Part shown: positions 1 through 10,881 of the stretch, piece by piece
Layout of the letters: each line of letters starts with the position of its first letter
How positions within the stretch are numbered: the stretch's first letter is position 1
Source of the DNA: Eledone cirrhosa
Taxonomy: Eukaryota
DNA length: 64,000 nucleotides
Assembly: GCA_964016885.1 (NCBI GenBank)
Contig: OZ024743.1
Coordinates: 214,954,001 to 215,018,000 of the forward strand
Reading direction: 5' to 3'
Made by a program: the position numbers and the translations under genes
Notes under the pieces: generated by a model
The model's database searches: none
Told to the model about the DNA's origin: nothing
What the model saw: only the letters and a program-made list of their open reading frames with translations

Positions 1-2429
1 CTCCTCTTGTGGAACATGTTGTAGATAGTCCATAGCTTCCTAGTCTTCCTATCCATTTCTTTTTGTTCAGCAACATTCCATCTCAGAATTCCCGCACTGT
101 ACCTAATAATAGACACAGCTCGGGAATTTACTGCGCTTATGGCATTTCTGCTGTTCAGATGTGACTTCAATACGCTCCTTACTCTCCGAATGTATTCAGT
201 TCTTAACAATTCCTTCATTGTTTTGTTCTTTATGCCATCAGCCTCCAGAACGCCCAAATACTTGTATCCTTCCTCAGAGTCAATTTCCTTTTTCATCTCA
301 CCTGTTGGTATCTGGATCCCGTTACTTCTGCTCAACCTACCCCTTTTCATCACAATGACTCCACATTTACCAATACCAAACTGCATACATATATCACTGC
401 TGAAAATACGGACAGTGTCAACAAGCACATCCAACTCCTTCTCACTTTTCCCGAAGAGCTTAAGATCGTCCATGAAGAGCAGGTGATTGATGGTAAGCTC
501 TCCCCTTCCCAACTTGTATCCTGCTCTCACTTTTCGCAGCATAATGGTCAAGGGCATCAGGGCAAGGACAAACAACAGAGGGGACAGGCTATCTCCCTGG
601 AAGATACCTCTCTTGATATTCACGCTTCCCAAGGATACTCCAGTTGATGTCAACTCTGTCTCCCAGGACCCCATACTCCTGCCTAGCAACTGTCTGATGT
701 TATCTGCCACCCTGAAGATCTCCAGGCTTTTGGTGATCCAGGAATGGGGCACCATGTCAAATGCCTTTCTGTAGTCTATCCATCCCATGGCAAGATCAGT
801 GTGTCTCCTCCTGCAATTCCCCATTACCATCTTATCAATAAGTAACTGGTCCTTTGTACGACGTGACTTCTTTCGGCATCCCTTCTGTTCGTCCGGTAAC
901 AAGTTGTTTGTGTGGAGGTGATGGTAGATTTCCTCAGACACAATGCTCGTCAACAGTTTCCACATTACGGACAGACATGTGATAGGTCTATAGTTGGTAA
1001 CATCATTACCCTTGATTCGGTCTTTCATTATCAGAACTGTGGTACCTTTTGTCAACCACTCTGGCACTTCACCCGACACCAAGCAGTCATTGAACATGGC
1101 CGTCAGCTTCGGGTGGAGGGATGTTAAATGTTTAATCCAATACCCCTGCACACCATCTGGGCCTGGTGATTTCCAGTTGGTTAGTTTTTTGGCCTGCCCC
1201 TTAAGAGTTTCAACTGTGATACTCAAATCAGTTTGTTGTTGTGCCTGCTCACCGATCTCCCTCTGTACTGTCTCAATCCACCCTGCCTGGGCATTGTGTC
1301 TAACATCCTGCTCCCATATTCCTCTCCAGAATGTTTTAGTTTGCTCCGCCCCAGGGATCAAGTTGTTGCCTCTTTCTTTCCCCTCAAGCTGTCCAAACAG
1401 CATCTTCTGGTTGTTGTCGAACATGCGGTTCTGTTTATACTGACTGACTCTGTTCTCGTATCGCCTGATTTTTGCACTCTTTGCTACAATGCGTTGCTTC
1501 AGTTCCTCTATGATAATATTTAGCTTTTTCCTCCTAGTTTTGTATTTTATTTCCAGTCTATTTTTAGTGCCTATGTTTTTTAGTGTCCCATTCAGTAGTG
1601 ACTCAAGCTTTCCTATGTCATTTCTCATTTCCCCGATTTGCCCACTCAGTCACTTCTTCCACCACGGCTCTGCTCTTTCTTGTCTGTTGTTTCCTCTCGC
1701 TTTTATACCAAGTAGTTTCCTCACCGTATTTGCTGTTGCTTTGAGGATATTGTTGCACTGGTGAAGGCTCCTCGCCTCAAGGTATGGGATGACTTTGTTT
1801 ACCCTAGCTGTTGTTTCTTTTAACTTTTTCCTGTCTACAAATCTTAGATTCATAGGTCTCCCACTATCATTGTTCAATTCATCTACCACTAAATTTAGGA
1901 TGTCAACCGAATCTTGTCCTAGCCCGTCAGCATTCATCTCCTCAGTGGCCGTATCTCTGTTCCAGGTATTATTTATCTCAGTATTCAGATCATTGTCTGC
2001 TTCGGGTGGTTCCTCCGTTCTCAGGACCTCTTCACCTTCATTTCCCACTGGCTCGCTTGTCTGGCATACTACACCCGCCATCTCCAAGCCATTCTCTCTG
2101 CTCAGTTCCTCCAGTTCCAGCTCGCTTATCCATCCATTAGTTCTTATTACCCGAGCCTGCCCGGCCAATTTTTGTTCATCTAATTTAAATAAACCAATCT
2201 CGTTCCAGATGTTATGCATCCGTCTCCTGTAGCCCCTCTCCTTTGGGTTACTTTTCAGGTAACATTGCATAACAGTTCTATTCAATTCTTTCGTCCAGTT
2301 GGTTCTGGCCTCTTTCCTTCTTCTCCTTCCTCCAAAATCAGCAGTATTTGGTTGACAGTCAGGTTCCTGCTGCTGAGCCAGGGGGCACCTGTTGGGTGAG
2401 AGTCTGTCACATGACGTTCTAGTCTCCAT
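1..2429 (-). pseudogene. Dong-A reverse transcriptase ORF with a nonsense codon at 1650-1652
   Basis: ORF 1650..2429 ends WWKK-TGA, and the same frame continues LSGQIGEMRNDIGKLE...KQRIVAKSAKIRRYE towards the RT domain. The stop is probably a CGA>TGA change. Confidence 0.85.
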
Positions 2430-2610
2430 TTCACCGTTATTCGAACTGTTTATGTTCGATATTTAAACACTCTTATCGAGGATTGGCGAATGTATGGTTA
2501 CATATCCATCTGTGGATCCGCCATTCCACTTGGCCCTTGTGTCGCATTATCACCACGCTGTATACGGACACACATAAACAAACAAACACACAGGCAGAAA
2601 GGGCCCCAAA
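1..2610 (-). mobile_element. R4/Dong-clade RLE non-LTR retrotransposon, family A; 5' part, runs off the window's left edge
   Basis: N-terminus WTKELNRTVMQCYLKSNPKERGYRRRMHNIW...EQKLAGQARVIRTNGWISELE is typical of the R4/Dong clade. RT motifs RGIFQGDSLS (~585-612) and INHLLFMDD (~466-492) lie on the minus strand. Bases 1-165 match the reverse complement of 48115-48280. The 5' boundary is approximate. Confidence 0.9.
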
Positions 2611-2899
2611 AATGAATAAGCATAAGTTTCATTGTAATGTAGTGTTCGAATGTCTGACTTAGTTTTTGTTTTTTAAGTTTTAGTTTTTCCCCCCTCTTCT
2701 CTGTCCGTCCGCCTGCTTCTCTCTTCATTCTTATTTTCTTTACGTTCTTTGGGGTTTTTTTTTGGTTTTTGTTTTGGTTTTTCTCTGTTTGTTTTTCTCG
2801 TTTTTTGCTGTTGTTGCTGTGCTGCTTTGGTTTTGTTGTTTGTTTTTTCTTTTTTCTTTTGAGTCTATCTATATATTTTGATGCCTTCCTCTTTTTTAG

Positions 2900-3145
2900 C
2901 AGTAGGGATTCTATAATGTGGTGGCGGCAGCCAGCTAAAAGAAGTGGGAGACTGGCGGCGGTAGCGATACTGAGACAGTGGTGGTGGTGATGTCGATACC
3001 GAGGCAGTGGTGGCGGTGACGTGACCGTATTACGGTAGTGATGGTGCTGTAGCGGTGGTAGCAGTGAAGGAGTGAAGGGGTGGTGGTGGCGGTGATGGGA
3101 TAATGGTTGTAATGATGGCCGTAGTGAGCGGTGGTGGTTTAGTGT
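2900..3145. repeat. degenerate (GGT/GGC)n low-complexity tract
   Basis: Repeated gtggtggcggtg-type units, preceded by a T-rich tract at 2660-2880. Confidence 0.7.
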
Positions 3146-3154
3146 ACACAGGTG

Positions 3155-3188
<34 letters not shown>
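3155..3188. repeat. (TTA)n microsatellite; 3' tail or target of Dong-B copy 1
   Basis: Pure ttattatta run abutting the element's 3' UTR. Confidence 0.95.
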
Positions 3189-3189
<1 letters not shown>

Positions 3190-6100
3190 AGTTGCATTTA
3201 TCTTGCTACATGTTCATACGAGTTATCACCAAGTCACAACCAGTGACCTCAAGGGACAACAAGGTCCGCCATGTTCAAGAAAGAACATACATATTCACAC
3301 ATGCATCTTTAGTGTTTAGACTTGTGATGTACTTATATTGACAGAATCTTCCTTAGTATATGGGCAGTTCCCATTAGTACTATCTTTTGTATTTCTCCTA
3401 TACGCGGGTTTCCTGGGATTTGCGATAAGTAATCATTAGACCCCTTAGGTATCATTCCCAGAGCGCCTACAACCACTGGTATTGTTTTAGTTCTCAATTT
3501 CCACATTTTTCCAATTTCTATCTCCAGGTCCTTATACTTGCTCAATTTTTCAAATGTTTTTATAGATACATTCTTGTCTATTGGAACAGACATATCAATT
3601 AGCAGGCATACCCTCTTTTGAAAGTCTTTCAATATTATATCAGGTCTGTTTGCATTTATTTTTCGGTCTGTTTGGATGCTAAAGTTCCACAAGATTGAGA
3701 TGTGATCTTTTTCAAGTATGGGAGGTGGTTGATGCTCCCACCAATTCTTTTGATGGGGCAGGTCAAAATGCTTACACATTATACAATGTATGTATTGTGC
3801 AGCTCTGTCATGCCTGTTTAGGTATTCGGTTGGATCTATAGGACTGCACATTGAAATTATAGGGTCAATGGTCTCTGGTTGTTTTTTGCATACACGGCAT
3901 AATGGGCTGCACCCATTTTTTATTATGTTGGCTTGGTAATTTTTTGTTGGCAGACACTGATCTTGTGCCGATATAATCAGTCCTTCAGTCTCCGATTTCA
4001 GTCCAGAAGATGCCAACCACTGATGGTTTAAAGTTTTGTCAACATCAGGATTGTTAGCTCACTCTGGGTATTTTCCATACAGAGGCTTTTCTTGCCATTT
4101 CTTAGCCAGTTTCTGTAGCAGTTCTTTCTTTGCAGTTACTTTTACCTGCTTTGCTTTTTCTGTGTTTTCCATTTCAGCAGTAAATGGGTCTTCTGAAATT
4201 TGTAGTCTATTACTGTATCTTTGTGCATCTTTTGTAATGGAATATGATCTGTTGATGCTTTCGTGTTTCAAAACGAGTTTGATCATCCAATCATGTGATT
4301 CCCTTAGATATGTAGATAATCCAATTGTTGCAGTTTTCAACGCAATGTCTAACTGGATTAACCCACGTCCTCCTTCTTTCCTAGGGAGATATATTCTATC
4401 TATATCTGCTTTAGGGTGATGCATTCTGTGCATGGTTAAGAATTTTCAAATTTTTGTTTTGAGCCTACGGATCTCTGTGCTTGACCAGTTGATGACATTG
4501 TAACTGTAGGTTACTACTGGTATGGCAAGCGTGTTTATGGCATCGATCCTATTCCTTGCATTCAATTCCCTTTTTTAAGATTGCTCTCACTCTGCGGTAA
4601 CATTCCTTCCTTATCCTTTCCCTCATTGTCGAGTGCTTGATTCCGTCTCCTTCACAAACACAGATATTTGTAAGTTTTTTCTTGATCAAGTTCTCTTATC
4701 ACGTTCCCCCGATCAAGATTAATGTCTGAACTCTTCAGCAGCTTTCCTCTGGTGAACGTTGCTTTGGCGCATTTATCTAGTCCAAACTCCATTTTAATGT
4801 CATCACTGAACTGCTTCACAGTGGATAATAGCCCTTGCAATTATTCATCATTTTTTGCAAATAGTTTCAGGTCATCCATGTAGAACAGGTGATTAATGGT
4901 TTTGTCATAGACTTTATATCCATGTTTTGTTTCATTGTGCATTTTACTTAATGGTATAAGTGCGATGCAGAATAAAAGCGGTGATAAAGAGTCACCCTGA
5001 AAAATTCCACACTTAATATTAACTTCTCCAGCTTCCAGTGATTTTGTTTCACTATTCAAAAGGAGTGTCGTTTTCCATGTCTTCATACTGAATGACAAAA
5101 ACCTCCTGACAACGGGGGATACTTTGAAAATCCCTAAACATTTTTCAATCCAACTGTGTGGCAAACTATCAAATGCTTTTTTATAATCTATGCAAGCAAT
5201 CGATATATTTTTGTGTCTATTATGACAATCTTCCAGTATCATTTTGTTAACCAGAAGCTGATCCTTACAGCCATATGAGCCTCGTTTACACCCTTTCTGC
5301 TCAATGGGAAATAGGTCATTTGTTATCAGGTGGTCATATGTGTATTCAGTTAGGACTGATGTTAAAATGTTATACATTGTGGTCAAGCAAGTTATCGGTC
5401 TGTAATTTTTGGGATTGTTTGTCTCATCATTCTTCGGAAGCAGGAATGTAATGCCGTTAACTAGCCATGAATGTATCTTTTCTGGCTCCTTAACTATTTC
5501 ATTTTAAAGTTGGGCTAACAGCTCATGAGACTCTGTGAAGGCATTTATCCAAAAGTTTTGTATTTTGTCTTTTCCTGGGGATTTCCATTTGCTGGTTTTT
5601 CTTAGAGCCAAGCGCAACTGTTCAACTGTTATATTTTCCCATGTTTTTTCCTCAAGGTGATCTGTATCTTTCATTTGTCTGTCTATCCATGGGGCATGTA
5701 TGTTATGAACTTTTTCTTCGGCCCAGATCTTTTCCCATAATTCTTGCACTTCCTCCTTGGGTGGTATTGATTTAGCAGTTATTGTTGACTTACCAATTTT
5801 TCTGTAGAAGTTTCTTTGGTTGTTTTTGACAATATTATTGTCCTTATAGAATCTAATCGTTTTTCAAAGCGCCTTATACGAGCAGCTTTGGCCGACACTT
5901 TTTGCTTGATTATTTCTATCAGCATGTCTATGTCACATGTTGATTTTGTACTGTACTTTTTTTTTCAATTTTCTAAGTTTAGTTTGTTTAACCTGTTCAC
6001 CTACTTTATAGTTTGTTAAAATTTCTATGTCAGATCGGAGAAGGTTTATTTGGCGATTGATGTTCTCTTGCCAAGTAGATTTCTTGTTTTTTCATCTTCA

Positions 6101-7130
6101 CTCCACATAAGTGAGTGGTGACTTTAGCCGATGCATAATAGAGATGATTTAAATCAGTAATGTTTAGTTTGTTTGTGATGATAATGTTTTTGAGAATTAT
6201 GTTAGTCTTGTGTATTATCTTTTGGTTCTGTTTGGAGTTCTGGATCTTAGGGAGGGTGTCTCGTTGCCCCATGTCAGATTCTTTCATTTTCATCCATTCT
6301 ATCATAATTTCATCCTTCAAGTTGGCAAGTTCATTCTCATTCAGTTCTTGATCATTTACGATCTCATTATTTTCATTTGGAGTTTCATCCTGAGCATGCA
6401 CTCCCTCCACTTTTTCGATCCTTTCTTTAATTTGTTCTGTTGCCCCAGCCCTGGGATTCGAAGTGTTACAGTTTACCTCGTTTTCACTGACACATGTTTC
6501 ATTTTCCCTTCGCTGACTTTGTGCTAATAGCTTGATCTGATCAATTTCTATATCAGTTAGTAACTTTTTTCTTACAATATTTCTTCGTATATTGGCTAGT
6601 TTGTTGCTGTCAATATAGCCTATGTTTTCGGGATGTTTCTTTTTCCAGTTGATATATGTCTGTTCTGTATTCGATGTATTTGATGGGTAGTACATGGCAG
6701 TGTAGAAAGCCTCAAGGACTTCTTTATTATCTTCCCTTGACAATTTTTCTCTCTTTTTCTTTGGATTTCTTGGTGGTGAGCATGGAGGGCCAACAGTAGG
6801 AGTATTCCGGTTATGGGAGGTCTCCAGCTCCGAAGTGATGGGAAGGTTTGATCATTAGCTGATTTTTCGACCCCAGTCTGGTTCCTCCCTGAGGGACGCG
6901 GCCCTTTTTTACCCGGGTGACGGCCGATCCGGTATGAGATTTTATCATTAGACATTTACTTTATTTTGTCGCGTTTTATCCTTATCCGCCAAGGGGTAAT
7001 CATTTCGTGTTACCACTTCTAGAACGAGTGTCAACCAAGACTAGATGGGGTCGTTCTCCCCTAGAGACACGGCTATTCCCCGCCGGCCGCCATCCCGGTA
7101 TTTCTTGGTCGCGGGGTTTTCTTTTTGTTG

Positions 7131-7135
<5 letters not shown>
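3189..7135 (-). mobile_element. R4/Dong-clade retrotransposon family B, copy 1; full-length, with frameshifts and stops
   Basis: ORF fragments 6620-6955, 6030-6743, 5504-5749, 4841-5386 (GIFQGDSLSP, HLFYMDD), 4652-4840, 4059-4433 and 3333-4016 (CRVC..H..C, RHD, NRPD..D..K RLE motif). Flanked on both sides by (TTA)n. Nearly identical to 7339-10881. Confidence 0.95.
6975..7116 (-). promoter_or_regulatory. highly structured 5' UTR of Dong-B (putative double pseudoknot)
   Basis: GC-rich segment with complementary blocks on the element strand: CCCCGC/GCGGGG, GACCAAGA/TCTTGGTT, GTGTC/GACAC, CTAG/CTAG, GGGG/CCCC, AGAACGA/TCGTTCT. Lies just upstream of the ATG at 6955. Confidence 0.55.
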
Positions 7136-7199
<64 letters not shown>

Positions 7200-7210
7200 G
7201 TTATTGTTAT
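7136..7210. repeat. (TTA)n microsatellite between Dong-B copy 1 and a Dong-A tail
   Basis: About 25 TTA/TTG units. Confidence 0.95.
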
Positions 7211-7288
7211 TCCTTGAATCTCAGTCATTGATGTTGGTTAACTGGAAAGTCCGTTGGATTGAATATCAAGCCACTACCTGCAGCCTCA

Positions 7289-7289
<1 letters not shown>
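7211..7289 (-). mobile_element. Dong-A extreme 3' end (~80 bp, severely 5'-truncated)
   Basis: tctcagtcattgatgtt...tatcaagccactacctgcagcctcag matches the 3' UTRs at 51980-52050 and (reverse complement) 42635-42710 and 49228-49300. Embedded in (TTA)n on both sides. Confidence 0.85.

Positions 7290-7338
<49 letters not shown>
7290..7338. repeat. (TTA)n microsatellite; tail of Dong-B copy 2
   Basis: Pure TTA run abutting the 3' UTR. Confidence 0.95.
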
Positions 7339-7339
<1 letters not shown>

Positions 7340-10300
7340 TGCATTTATCTTGCTTTATGTTTATACGAGTTATCACCAAGTCACAACCAGTGACCTCAAG
7401 AGACAACAAGGTCCGCCATGTTCAAGAAAGAACACACATATTCACACATGCATCCTTAGTGTTTAGACTTGTGATGTACTTATATTGACAGGATCTTCCT
7501 TAGTATATGGGCAGTTCCCATTAGTACTATCTTTTGTATTTCTCCTATACGCGGGTTTCCTGGGATTTGCGATAAGTAGTCGTTAGACCCCTTAGGTATC
7601 ATTCCCAGAGCGCCTACAACCACTGGTATTGTTTTAGTTCTCAATTTCCACATTTTTCCAATTTCTATCTCCAGGTCCTTATACTTGCTCAATTTTTCAA
7701 ATGTTTTTATAGATACATTCTTGTCTATTGGAACAGACATATCAATTAGCAGGCATACCCTCCTTTGAAAGTCCTTCAATATTATATCATGTCTATTTGC
7801 ATCTATTTTTCGGTCTGTTTGGATGCTAAAGTTCCACAAGATTGAGATGTGATCTTTTTCAAGTATGGGAGGTGGTTGATGCTCCCACCAATTCTTTTGA
7901 TGGGGCAGGTCAAAATGCTTACACATTATCCAATGTATGTATTGTGCAGCTCTGTCATGCCTGTTTAGGTGTTCGGTTGGATCTATAGGACTGCACATTG
8001 AAATTATATGGTCAATGGTCTCTGGTTGCTTTTTGCATACACGGCATAATGGGCTGCACCCATTTTTTATTATGTTGGCTTGGTAATTTTTTGTTGGCAG
8101 ACACTGATCTTGTGCGGATATAATCAGTCCTTCAGTCTCCGATTTCAGTCCAGAGGATGCCAACCACTGATGGGTTAAAGTTTTGTCAAAATCAGGATTG
8201 TTAGCTCGCTCTGGGTATTTTCCATACAGAGGCTTTTCTTGCCATTTCTTAACCAGTTTCTGTAGCAGTTCTTTCTTTGCAGTTACTTTTACCTGCTTTG
8301 CTTTTTCTGTGTTTTCCATTTCAGCAGTAAATGGGACTTCTGAAATTTGTAGTCTATTACTGTATCTTTGTGCATCTTTTGTAATGGAATATGATCTTTT
8401 GGTGCTTTCGTGTTTCAAAACGAGTTTGATCATCCAATCATGTGATTCCCTTAGATATGTGGATAATCCAATTGTTGCAGTTTTCAACGCAATGTCTAAC
8501 TGGATTAACCCACGTCCTCCTTCTTTCCTAGGGAGATATATTCTATCTATGTCTGCCTTAGGGTGATGCATTCTGTGCATGGTTAAGAATTTTCGGATTT
8601 TTGTATCGAGCCTACGGATCTCTGTGCTTGACCAGTTGATGACATTGTAACTGTAGGTTACTACTGGTATGGCAAGCGTGTTTATGGCATCGATCCTATT
8701 CCTTGCATTCAATTCCGTTCTTAAGATTGCTCTGACTCTGCGGTAACATTCCTTCCTTATCCTTTCCCTCATTGTCGAGTGCTTGATTCCGTCTCCTTCA
8801 CAAACACCTAGATATTTGTAAGTTTGTTCTTGATCAAGCTCTCTTATCACGTTCCCCCGATCAAGATTAATGTCTGAACTCTTCAGCAGCTTTCCTCTGG
8901 TGAACGTTGCTTTGGCGCATTTATCCAGTCCAAACTCCATTTTAATGTCATCACTGAACTGCTTCACAGTGGATAATAGCCCTTGCAATTGTTCATCATT
9001 TTTTGCGAATAGTTTCAGGTCATCCATGTAGAACAGGTGATTAATGGTTTTGTCATAGACTCTATATCCATGTTTTGTTTCATTGAGCATATTACTTAAT
9101 GGTATAAGTGCGATGCAGCATAAAAGCGGTGATAAAGAGTCACCCTGAAAAATTCCACAATTAATGTTAACTTCTCCAGCTTCCAGTGATTTTGTTTCAC
9201 TATTCAAAAGGAGTGTCGTTCTCCATGTCCTCATACTGAATGACAAAAACCTCCTGACAACGGGGGATATTTTGAAAATCTCTAAACATTTTTCAATCCA
9301 ACTGTGTGGCAAACTATCAAATGCTTTTTTATAATCTATCCAAGCAATCGATAGATTTTTGTGTCTATTATGACAATCTTCCAGTATCATTTTGTTAACC
9401 AGAAGCTGATCCTTACAGCCATATGAGCCTCGTTTACACCCTTTCTGCTCAATGGGAAATAGGTCATTTGTTATCAGGTGGTCATATGTGTATTCAGTTA
9501 GGACTGATGTTAAAATTTTATACATTGTGGTCAAGCAGGTTATCGGTCTGTATTTTTTGGGATTGTTTGTCTGATCATTCTTCGGAAGCAGGAATGTAAT
9601 GCCGTTAACTAGCCATGATGGTATCTTTTCTGGCTCCTTAACTATTTCATTGTAAAGTTGGGCTAACAGCTCATGAGACTCTGTGAAGGCATTTATCCAA
9701 AAGTTTTGTATTTTGTCTTTTCCTGGGGATTTCCATTTGCTGGTTTTTCTTAGAGCCAAGCGCAGCTGTTCAACTGTTATATTTTCCCATGTTTTTTCCT
9801 CAAGGTGAGCTGTTTCTTTCATTTGTCTGTCTATCCATGGGGCATGTATGTTATGAACTTTTTCTTCGGCCCAGATCTTTTCCCAGAATTCTTGCACTTC
9901 CTCCTTGGGTGGTATTGATTTAGCAGTTATTGTTGACTTACCAATTTTTCTGTAGAAGTTTCTTTGGTTGTTTTTGAACATATTATTGTCCTTATAGAAT
10001 CTAGATCGTTTTTCAAAGCGCCTTATACGAGCAGCTTTGGCCGACACTTTTTGCTTGATTGTTTCTATCAGCATGTCTATGTCACATGTTGATCTTATAC
10101 TGTACTTTTTTTTCAATTTTCTAAGTTTAGTTTGTTTAACATGTTCACCTACTTTATAGTTTGTTAACATTTCTATGTCAGATCGGAGAAGGTTTATTTG
10201 GCGATTGATGTTATCTTGCCAAGTAGATTTCTTGTGGGAATTCCTTTGTTTTTTCATCTTCACTCCACATAAGTGAGTGGTGACTTTAGCCGATGCATAA

Positions 10301-10881
10301 TAGAGATGATTTAAGTCAGTAATGTTTATTTTGTTTGTGATGATAATGTTTTTGAGAATTATGTTAGTCTTGTGTATTATCTTTTGGTTCTGTTTGGAGT
10401 TCTGGATCTTAGGGAGGGTGTCTCGTTCCCCCATGTCAGATTCTTTCATTTTCATCCATTCGATCATAATTTCATCCTTCAAGTTGGCAAGTTCATTCTC
10501 ATTCATTTCTTTATCATTTACGATCTCATTATTTTCATTTGGAGTTTCATCCTGAGCATGCACTCCCTCCACTTTTTCGCTCCTTTCTTTAATTTGTTCT
10601 GTTGCCAGTGATTCCGCCCCAACTCTGGGATTCGAAGTGTTACAGTTTACCTCGTTTTCACTGACACATGCTTCATTTTCCCTTCGCTGACTTTGTGCTA
10701 CTAGCTTGATCTGATCAATTTCTATATCAGTTAGTAACTTTTTTCTTACAATATTTCTTCGTATATTGGCTAGTTTGTTACTGTCAATATAGCCTCTGTT
10801 TTCGGGATGTTTCTTTTTCCAGTTGATATATGTTTGCTCTGTATTCGATGTATTTGATGGGTAGTACATGGCAGTGTAGAA
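7339..10881 (-). mobile_element. R4/Dong-clade retrotransposon family B, copy 2; 5'-truncated
   Basis: Colinear with copy 1. Similarity stops after tacatggcagtgtagaa (10881), which corresponds to ~6707 in copy 1. Confidence 0.95.
7480..10869 (-). CDS. non-LTR retrotransposon protein: RT, CCHC zinc knuckle and restriction-like endonuclease (1129 aa, N-terminally truncated)
   Basis: Motifs KSPGKD, YRPITCL, QKGC, WIDYKKAFDS, GIFQGDSLSP, HLFYMDDLKL, KYLG, RKEGGRGL, CRVC-ETIDHIISMC, RHD and NRHDII..LIDMSVP..EKLSKY. No stops or frameshifts. Confidence 0.93.
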   Translation of the reverse strand: MYYPSNTSNTEQTYINWKKKHPENRGYIDSNKLANIRRNIVRKKLLTDIEIDQIKLVAQSQRRENEACVSENEVNCNTSNPRVGAESLATEQIKERSEKVEGVHAQDETPNENNEIVNDKEMNENELANLKDEIMIEWMKMKESDMGERDTLPKIQNSKQNQKIIHKTNIILKNIIITNKINITDLNHLYYASAKVTTHLCGVKMKKQRNSHKKSTWQDNINRQINLLRSDIEMLTNYKVGEHVKQTKLRKLKKKYSIRSTCDIDMLIETIKQKVSAKAARIRRFEKRSRFYKDNNMFKNNQRNFYRKIGKSTITAKSIPPKEEVQEFWEKIWAEEKVHNIHAPWIDRQMKETAHLEEKTWENITVEQLRLALRKTSKWKSPGKDKIQNFWINAFTESHELLAQLYNEIVKEPEKIPSWLVNGITFLLPKNDQTNNPKKYRPITCLTTMYKILTSVLTEYTYDHLITNDLFPIEQKGCKRGSYGCKDQLLVNKMILEDCHNRHKNLSIAWIDYKKAFDSLPHSWIEKCLEIFKISPVVRRFLSFSMRTWRTTLLLNSETKSLEAGEVNINCGIFQGDSLSPLLCCIALIPLSNMLNETKHGYRVYDKTINHLFYMDDLKLFAKNDEQLQGLLSTVKQFSDDIKMEFGLDKCAKATFTRGKLLKSSDINLDRGNVIRELDQEQTYKYLGVCEGDGIKHSTMRERIRKECYRRVRAILRTELNARNRIDAINTLAIPVVTYSYNVINWSSTEIRRLDTKIRKFLTMHRMHHPKADIDRIYLPRKEGGRGLIQLDIALKTATIGLSTYLRESHDWMIKLVLKHESTKRSYSITKDAQRYSNRLQISEVPFTAEMENTEKAKQVKVTAKKELLQKLVKKWQEKPLYGKYPERANNPDFDKTLTHQWLASSGLKSETEGLIISAQDQCLPTKNYQANIIKNGCSPLCRVCKKQPETIDHIISMCSPIDPTEHLNRHDRAAQYIHWIMCKHFDLPHQKNWWEHQPPPILEKDHISILWNFSIQTDRKIDANRHDIILKDFQRRVCLLIDMSVPIDKNVSIKTFEKLSKYKDLEIEIGKMWKLRTKTIPVVVGALGMIPKGSNDYLSQIPGNPRIGEIQKIVLMGTAHILRKILSI

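Follow-up and report, generated by a model that had tools for sequence, protein, structure and literature searches.

How retrotransposons that have only one open reading frame (ORF) and no long terminal repeats (non-LTR elements) are translated without a normal mRNA 5' end is an open question, which is raised here by a 64,000-nt stretch of the Eledone cirrhosa genome (assembly GCA_964016885.1, contig OZ024743.1, positions 214,954,001-215,018,000 of the forward strand; hereafter the window). One retrotransposon copy of this window, Dong-B, carries a structured stretch of 146 nt (minus strand, 7116-6971) just ahead of its ORF start codon, and comparison with related elements supports a conserved multi-pseudoknot RNA at this place. 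The RNA, called the module below, has three parts: a core (7116-7071) shaped like that of hepatitis delta virus (HDV) ribozymes, an arm (7061-6996) of the type known from RTE elements, and a terminal H-type pseudoknot. Its most probable function, proposed tentatively, is that of a translation-start element that cleaves itself slowly or not at all.

Numbers preceded by L (for example L161) are labels of loci from this genome, metagenomes, viral contigs and genome contigs. The features of the window are as follows:
7135..7211, minus strand: (TAA)n target repeat, joined at about 7135 by the 5'-truncated window copy
7117..7135, minus strand: A-rich end of the long leader
7078..7116, minus strand: core, with P1 (7116-7112/7082-7078), P2 strand (7110-7103), AAAU linker, P3 (7098-7095/7086-7083) and 8-nt loop (7094-7087); compensatory pairs in L161, L162/L168 and L164
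7071..7091, minus strand: core pseudoknot, loop GGC (7091-7089) with GCC (7073-7071), past AAUA; GGU/ACC in L161 and L162, AGC/GCU in L164
7033..7110, minus strand: long-range pairing proposed in a first-pass annotation (7110-7103/7040-7033); complementarity present, covariation absent
7021..7061, minus strand: arm pseudoknot, hairpin GGGG/CCCC (7061-7058, 7050-7047) with a 7-nt loop pairing with 7027-7021, and hairpin GTC/GAC (7041-7039, 7032-7030) with loop TTGGTT; covariation in 12 arms
6996..7020, minus strand: arm 3' half, GTG-GTAA-CAC hairpin between (G/A)A and GA, then TTACC; subfamily variants in the arm alignment
6971..6994, minus strand: small H-type pseudoknot, CCTT/AAGG (6994-6991, 6983-6980) and GCG/CGC (6989-6987, 6973-6971), with an A-rich loop; 35/35 cells paired
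6953..6970, minus strand: A-rich spacer of 15 nt, then the start codon of the ORF (6955-6953); N-terminus conserved in relatives
3155..6955, minus strand: Dong-B ORF (reverse transcriptase, RT, and C-terminal region), 3' untranslated region (UTR) and (TAA)n tail; broken in the window copy

Covariation in the core, arm and terminal knot

Relatives were collected from metagenomes, where scanning with an N-terminal alignment left 22 loci out of 137 candidates; they were searched with a core descriptor comprising P1, AAA linker, P3, 8-nt loop, RAUA, 3-bp loop partner and P2, which was composed after viewing the loci and was not blind. MAFFT misplaced the register of P1, so the descriptor output served for counting the core pairs. 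The descriptor matches the window and 4 of the 22 metagenome loci (L161, L162, L168 and L164), which represent three families showing 39-47% identity to one another and to Dong-B over the N-terminal 140 amino acids. Across the four families, P1 reads CCCCG/CGGGG, CCACG/CGUGG, CCGCG/CGCGG and CCCGCC/GGCGGG, P3 reads CCGG/CCGG, CCAG/CUGG, CUGG/CCAG and CGG/CCG, and the loop pairing reads GGC/GCC, GGU/ACC, GGU/ACC and AGC/GCU, the last with a longer linker and a less certain register. The 8-nt loops are GATGGCGG, GTTGGTAT, GTTGGTGT and ATTAGCGT, with a linker of 4-8 nt; the unpaired AAA, the RAUA and the U/G residues of the loop are invariant. Local shuffles gave 0, 0, 0 and 1 descriptor matches in 2000. 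Further matches were obtained in AT-rich stretches of the window, most of which are (AT)n, at 13 places in 2.5 Mb of shuffled sequence, and at two AT-rich places in L182 that were judged to be chance.

Viral contigs contained one Dong-like locus with search alignment A1 and none with A2, and gave 0 matches to the core pattern, six pattern matches without stem context being set aside as chance. Genome contigs yielded 8 Dong-like loci, none with a credible core. The genome of E. cirrhosa itself held no further core-bearing family for the GCA/UGC knot, and one candidate for another such family turned out to be an old Dong-B copy. An 18S rRNA complementarity of the core loop UGGCGG was not retained, given that the covarying partner of this loop is internal.

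The arm was compared in 12 sequences, 10 from relatives and 2 from the E. cirrhosa genome; relatives contain one to three copies each, aligning in register with 7061-6996. In this set, 81 of 84 cells are paired in the 7-bp helix (7051-7057/7021-7027), with many pair types, 44 of 48 in the 4-bp hairpin around its 5' strand, and 35 of 36 in the 3-bp hairpin around TTGGTT; the partner offset was the best of six tried, and landed at 2-3 nt every time. Pairing between the arm loop and its own tail extends over 6 bp in L154 and L161, 3 bp in Dong-B and 3-6 bp over the relatives. A kink-turn-like reading of the 3' half has GA/GA in older subfamilies and AA/GA in that of the window, with no C-stem established.

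This arm is, to judge by its sequence, already known as the RTE 5'-UTR/Ceph domain, to which the pseudoknot reading is added here. Kojima (2018, PMC5786205, sections cited) described a conserved domain of RTE 5' UTRs and of the Ceph domain's 3' half in short interspersed nuclear elements (SINEs), located in mid-UTR and present also in a coral R4 element. The Dong-B arm has in register its GGGN, 7 nt, NCTC, GYC-TTGG..-GRC and CTAG(G)AG, and its sequence and spacing match by eye OegopSINE and RTE-3_BF (supplement of PMC5786205). Sequence similarity alone is described in the sections cited, whereas the domain is interpreted here as a pseudoknot with covariation, attached to a distinct core.

Variation within the genome was pooled from 117 copies, a non-random set. 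At the subfamily level, 7 of 161 module positions vary, and the two that fall in stems of the first-pass annotation are the partners of the 7055/7023 pair, as are two frequent variants in public contigs. The G-C version of this pair occurs in 215 copies, and the first 100 of 1098 degenerate-search matches comprise 85 A-U, 14 G-C, 1 G-U and 0 A-C. The leader next to the module (260 nt) shows many substitutions and a deletion of about 50 nt at the same level. Because the module varies little, its stem changes are compensatory and the adjacent leader has diverged, selection on the module appears to have continued once the leader had been acquired.

The H-type knot, with the order CCTT-G-GCG..AAGG-ATAAAA-CGC, is paired in all 35 cells of five sequences (two from E. 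cirrhosa), two of the pairs having substitutions in both strands; scores as high came up in 7 of 500 shuffles, and slid controls reached 25-51%. From the last helix to the AUG there are 15 nt in Dong-B, 13 in L161, 13 in L164 and 14 in L162, i.e. in the four core-bearing families, and the knot of L158 ends 14 nt ahead of its AUG. Past the start codon, the N-terminal codons for YRIGR..G..GPRP are kept at the DNA level across families (CCGCATCG..CGTCGCGCGG; window 6920-6955, minus strand; L154-L174), which may point to a further RNA element within the coding region.

These comparisons bear on the first-pass annotation, which had read the stretch as two hairpin domains cross-linked by two loop pairings. 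All the complements that it quoted were found on the minus strand where it had placed them. Its argument that so many are unlikely by chance gains modest support from this one sequence: pseudoknot-permissive stem packing beats most shuffles (z = 2.9 for 7021-7116, 1/150 shuffles; z = 2.2 for 6965-7116, 1/60), the nested minimum free energy is at shuffle level (z = 0.04), and five diagonals with stems of at least 7 bp are matched by 91 of 1000 shuffles. As the stretch was picked post hoc, single-sequence statistics alone are insufficient for the claim. The nested helix sets of the annotation and of the conserved model lie within about 1.3 kcal/mol.

Homologues show compensatory changes for most helices, namely CCCCG/CGGGG, CCGG/CCGG, GGG(G)/(C)CCC, 7051-7057/7021-7027 (the second of the two loop pairings) and CCTT/AAGG. 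Covariation support is absent for four others: the first loop pairing (7103-7110/7033-7040), and GTGTC/GACAC, CTAG/CTAG and GGTAA/TTACC, which are without counterpart in the relatives' arms. The 7110-7103/7040-7033 pairing was not seen in relatives, in which the P2 strand pairs 3 nt past the loop partner, and a closed GTC/GAC hairpin would leave 6 bp of it; the pairing may represent a rewiring confined to the Dong-B lineage. Three helices had been overlooked: GGC 7091-7089/GCC 7073-7071, the GTC/GAC hairpin 7041-7030, and GCG/CGC 6989-6987/6973-6971.

Internal position of the module behind a long leader

The ORF of the Dong copies gives an RVT_1 domain match, and is open over 1216 aa in L035. 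A single RT ORF, a (TAA)n target and tail, and TAA at both ends were all found, as in Dong/R4 elements, the clade label being taken from the first-pass annotation and the literature. Dong-B (3155-7135) and Dong-A (7301-10881) belong to the same family (96.6% identity), for which the genome contains 1595 candidates, the 40 scored ones being 99-100% identical. An exact 26-mer of the structured stretch is present in 978 genomic copies, and the 3' ends detected among 20 long loci all pass into (TAA)n. The family is, on these counts and identities, large and young. A 1-nt insertion at 7046 is private to the window copy, 29/29 other copies lacking it.

Dong copies are also found nested: positions 3-10881 of the window hold three, head to tail, each sitting in the TAA tail of the next, and similar nesting occurs in L032, L039, L043 and L046. 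A tandem array of seven older copies of the G-C subfamily, spaced by about 4.9 kb, lies at G000:C2:353612557-353642048.

The structure had been placed at the 5' end of Dong-B, which is refuted by full-length copies beginning about 930-1200 nt further upstream; the window copy is 5'-truncated, the other 1 kb or so of its leader being gone. The 5' extent was examined in the first 30 of the 978 26-mer copies, taken by position and unselected. An upstream extension of at least 800 nt is present in 24 of the 30, and a sharp start at (TAA)n followed by AGGGAAGAA.. in 13 (14 including one with an internal deletion), while 4 break off 160-600 nt upstream, 1 begins, as does the window copy, within the A-rich stretch, and 1 has its start in the core. 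In full-length copies (11/11), the leader measures 930-1209 nt, and 11-15 AUGs, 2 of them within the module, precede the ORF start.

The core lies behind a leader of about 1 kb in Dong-B and of at least 430 nt in L162, and straight after (TAA)n in L161 and L164, where it begins 2-4 A's past the repeat. The trait common to all four core-bearing families is thus AUG proximity, not a 5'-terminal place. Genome-wide, 18 copies begin exactly at the structure (<2% of about 1,100), 14 of them sharing the junction T-AAAA-CCCCG. The proposal that the structure frees the element RNA from a read-through transcript loses weight, given that 24/30 copies keep at least 800 nt upstream and just 18 start there.

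A divergent element, Dong-C, has 37% protein identity to Dong-B, yet a near-identical distal leader over about 600 nt from (TAA)n-AGGGAAGAAGACGCACG (window 2430-3154, minus strand, and L094-L122 compared with L007-L092), and this sharing is best read as a recent exchange between divergent families. Dong-C has another fold ahead of its AUG (window 2430-2600, minus strand): a GTGGA/TCCAC hairpin whose loop can pair over 7 bp with a downstream TTCGCCA, followed by an H-type knot TCGATA/TATCGA and TGTTTA/TAAACA, a by-eye reading of copies that are too similar for covariation.

Comparison with HDV-like ribozymes and other folds

At its 5' junction, Bombyx mori Dong carries an HDV-like ribozyme that has been tested, and R2 and R4 likewise have HDV-like 5' ends (Eickbush et al. 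2013, PMC3774820, sections cited here and below). The Dong-B core resembles these ribozymes in retrotransposon clade and TAA target, and apparently in strand order (P1a-P2a-P3a-loop-P3b-P1b-loop partner). Along this order, P1, P3 and the loop-to-downstream pairing covary; the P2 partner varies by family, and does not come after the P4-like arm in L161/L162. In contrast to HDV-like ribozymes, the core is internal in the Dong-B family, its P1 starts with C following an A-run instead of with G, its loop is G(A/U)UGGYRK with a 3-bp pairing, and there is no conserved strand with the catalytic C. It further has a 4-6 nt AAAU linker from P2a to P3, and 4-5 nt (RAUA) before the loop partner, against 0-2 nt in R2 (PMC3774820).

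The active-site features of HDV were looked for individually. An L3 with conserved C and G and a P1.1 at 0-2 nt from P1 was not found, and neither was, in the four families, a conserved C-N-R-A strand before the P2 partner, corresponding to the catalytic C in J4/2. The element does not begin at a G opening P1, its P1 opening with C and 24/30 copies extending at least 800 nt upstream. An HDV descriptor had 0 matches in three complete 5' UTRs of Dong-B, in the window and in L161, L162 and L164; it gave nothing in L123, L154, L157, L170 and L176 and a weak match in Dong-C, so its sensitivity is limited. It does match L158, starting with G at the TAA junction, with the arm as P4, then CAAAC and P2. 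In L158 (15-270) and L160, the TAA junction bears an HDV-like fold of canonical appearance, whose P4 is the RTE arm and whose J4/2 is CAAAC; Rfam missed this fold.

Active-site features being missing, the Dong-B core is not filed, from its sequence, as a member of the HDV-like ribozymes. Its descent from such a ribozyme is probable because it has the same place and apparently the same strand order as the HDV core of L158.

Rfam covariance models (twister, hammerhead, pistol, hatchet, twister-sister and others) gave nothing near gathering score in 6000-8500 or in 14 loci, low-score chance matches only, with a sensitivity limited by the fact that the fold of L158 was also missed. The absent Rfam match and the zero HDV descriptor matches agree with the initial view that the structure is not a canonical HDV or hammerhead fold. 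Mappings onto twister, pistol, glmS, exonuclease-resistant RNA (xrRNA) and the dicistrovirus intergenic-region internal ribosome entry site (IRES), made by eye, were rejected on connectivity. The twister T-variants of Schistosoma Perere-3 (PMC8501958, part cited) resemble Dong-B as structured RNA in the 5' UTR of a long interspersed nuclear element (LINE), with AA before the first stem and a link to downstream translation; the Dong-B core differs in having no Rfam twister match and in connectivity and loop sequence. The sections consulted of PMC8191799, PMC10085705 and PMC13282606 do not describe the fold of the Dong-B module.

Other metagenome loci have different folds (L154/155/163/170; L156/157) or an HDV-like fold (L158-160), or lack the region. 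In L154, L156, L157, L163 and L170, a different 5' structure opens with G immediately past (TAA)n; it contains a GGAC/GTCT loop pairing that follows AUA or AGA, as well as a terminal 7-bp knot, and is perhaps a distant form of the Dong-B core. A small knot stands directly before the AUG of a Dong-like element in L176 (130-230), the 5' end of which may resemble a 5S rRNA internal promoter. In L123 (2440-2700), a Dong-like insertion at (TAA)n in a viral contig has a predicted pseudoknot about 10 nt before the AUG. Dong-like RT elements occur in eight bacterial genome records (L176-L183), mostly metagenome-assembled genomes, and are likely host-animal contamination.

Possible functions of the module

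A translation-start role is ranked first because the families share AUG proximity, an efficient cutter would remove the retained leader, and selection continued. The ancestor would have been an HDV-like ribozyme with the RTE arm as P4 domain, the active site of which has since been replaced. Dong-B would be transcribed from the acquired leader of about 1 kb, in which scanning would meet 11-15 AUGs first; the module, presumably folding in vivo and recruiting ribosomes, would by ending 15 nt upstream place the ribosome on the ORF AUG. In short-UTR relatives, the same module would permit translation from host read-through RNA, and it would not be the cutter that defines the element 5' end. Retrotransposon HDV-like ribozymes are reported to promote initiation (bioRxiv 10.1101/2024.05.16.594327, part cited), and the AUG of hepatitis C virus (HCV) is positioned by a pseudoknot near the exit channel (PMC7178104, part cited). 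The HCV-type IRES has likewise a pseudoknot at a short fixed distance before the AUG, and the analogy is functional only, the Dong-B module having neither domain II nor III and no Rfam match.

Several observations weigh against this role. The remaining 18 of the 22 metagenome loci lie outside the core descriptor, others using different folds, and the spacing to the AUG, measured by eye, is about 21 nt in L154, 17 in L157 and 4-7 in L176. Short spacers that lack structure are commonplace ahead of AUGs and might evolve whatever the function, and splicing or a second promoter could bypass the upstream AUGs. The pool of 117 copies also holds old copies with 3 A-C, 2 U-C and 1 G-G at 7055/7023, and the compensation within the genome is a single event, with a chance of about 0.07 before restored pairing is required. 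Finally, the 18 starts at the structure compare with 4 and 9 at two control leader A-runs (p = 0.004 and 0.12), and this excess, together with a core that is 5'-terminal in two of the four families, would fit cleavage, or else an exonuclease stop.

A stop of the latter kind belongs to the next explanation, considered unlikely, in which the module is a binding site for the Dong protein (ribonucleoprotein assembly, second-strand cleavage) or blocks a 5'-3' exonuclease and keeps the ORF-bearing RNA intact. It would account for copies starting 2-4 nt before P1, and it has precedents in HDV-like folds that raise R2 template use partly without cleavage (PMC11331408, part cited) and in R2 proteins that bind pseudoknotted UTR RNA, 5' folds being proposed as exonuclease-resistant (PMC12222951, part cited). 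It does not by itself explain the 13-15 nt AUG spacing, Dong-C shares the leader yet folds differently, and the two-helix junction of class 1 xrRNA is absent from the module.

Less probable again is a self-cleaving ribozyme with a non-HDV active site, cutting in U-A-A(AA) just 5' of P1; cleavage would set the element 5' end in short-UTR relatives, and would be slow or conditional in leader-bearing families. The core sits where the HDV core of L158 and the tested B. mori ribozyme sit (PMC3774820), the elements of L161 and L164 start 2-4 A's ahead of P1, and this is also the starting point of 18 genomic copies, 14 of them with an identical junction; the unpaired AAA, the RAUA and the loop U/G residues are invariant, and Perere-3 twister variants leave 5'-AA (PMC8501958). 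Against cleavage, 24 of 30 copies retain their upstream sequence, the junction is found in <2% of copies, its excess over one control is not significant (p = 0.12), and no Rfam ribozyme matches. Moreover, read-through RNA with upstream TAA repeats could anneal to the TAA target and give the same junction uncut, and L161 and L164 are single copies, possibly truncated themselves.

An old ribozyme scaffold that is functionless in the Dong-B family and kept owing to the youth of that family would agree with the 99% identity of most copies, the unremarkable single-sequence folding and an arm loop-to-tail pairing down to 3 bp, but is improbable in view of the compensatory swap between leader-bearing subfamilies and of a module that diverges less than the adjacent leader.

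Searches of the open-access literature brought up no description of the core and no fold proposed for the RTE/Ceph domain. The translation-start element may, more doubtfully, stand for a class of compact IRESs in animal retrotransposons that has not been described before, or less likely for a new class of ribozyme; on an HDV-like scaffold, the catalytic centre would have given way to a covarying RAUA/GGY-RCC knot, the RTE arm would have been kept, and the terminal knot would set the AUG 13-15 nt downstream. The 146-nt candidate is defined by covariation and comes with natural variants, its HDV-bearing relative L158 providing a natural control, and a fold is proposed for a widely conserved, unexplained SINE/LINE body sequence. 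Whether portable initiator, exonuclease block or new ribozyme, the module would be useful for retrotransposon-based gene insertion. If the IRES class is real, the translation of single-ORF R4/RTE elements from RNAs that are read-through products or have long leaders would be accounted for, as would the strong conservation of the Ceph/RTE domain.
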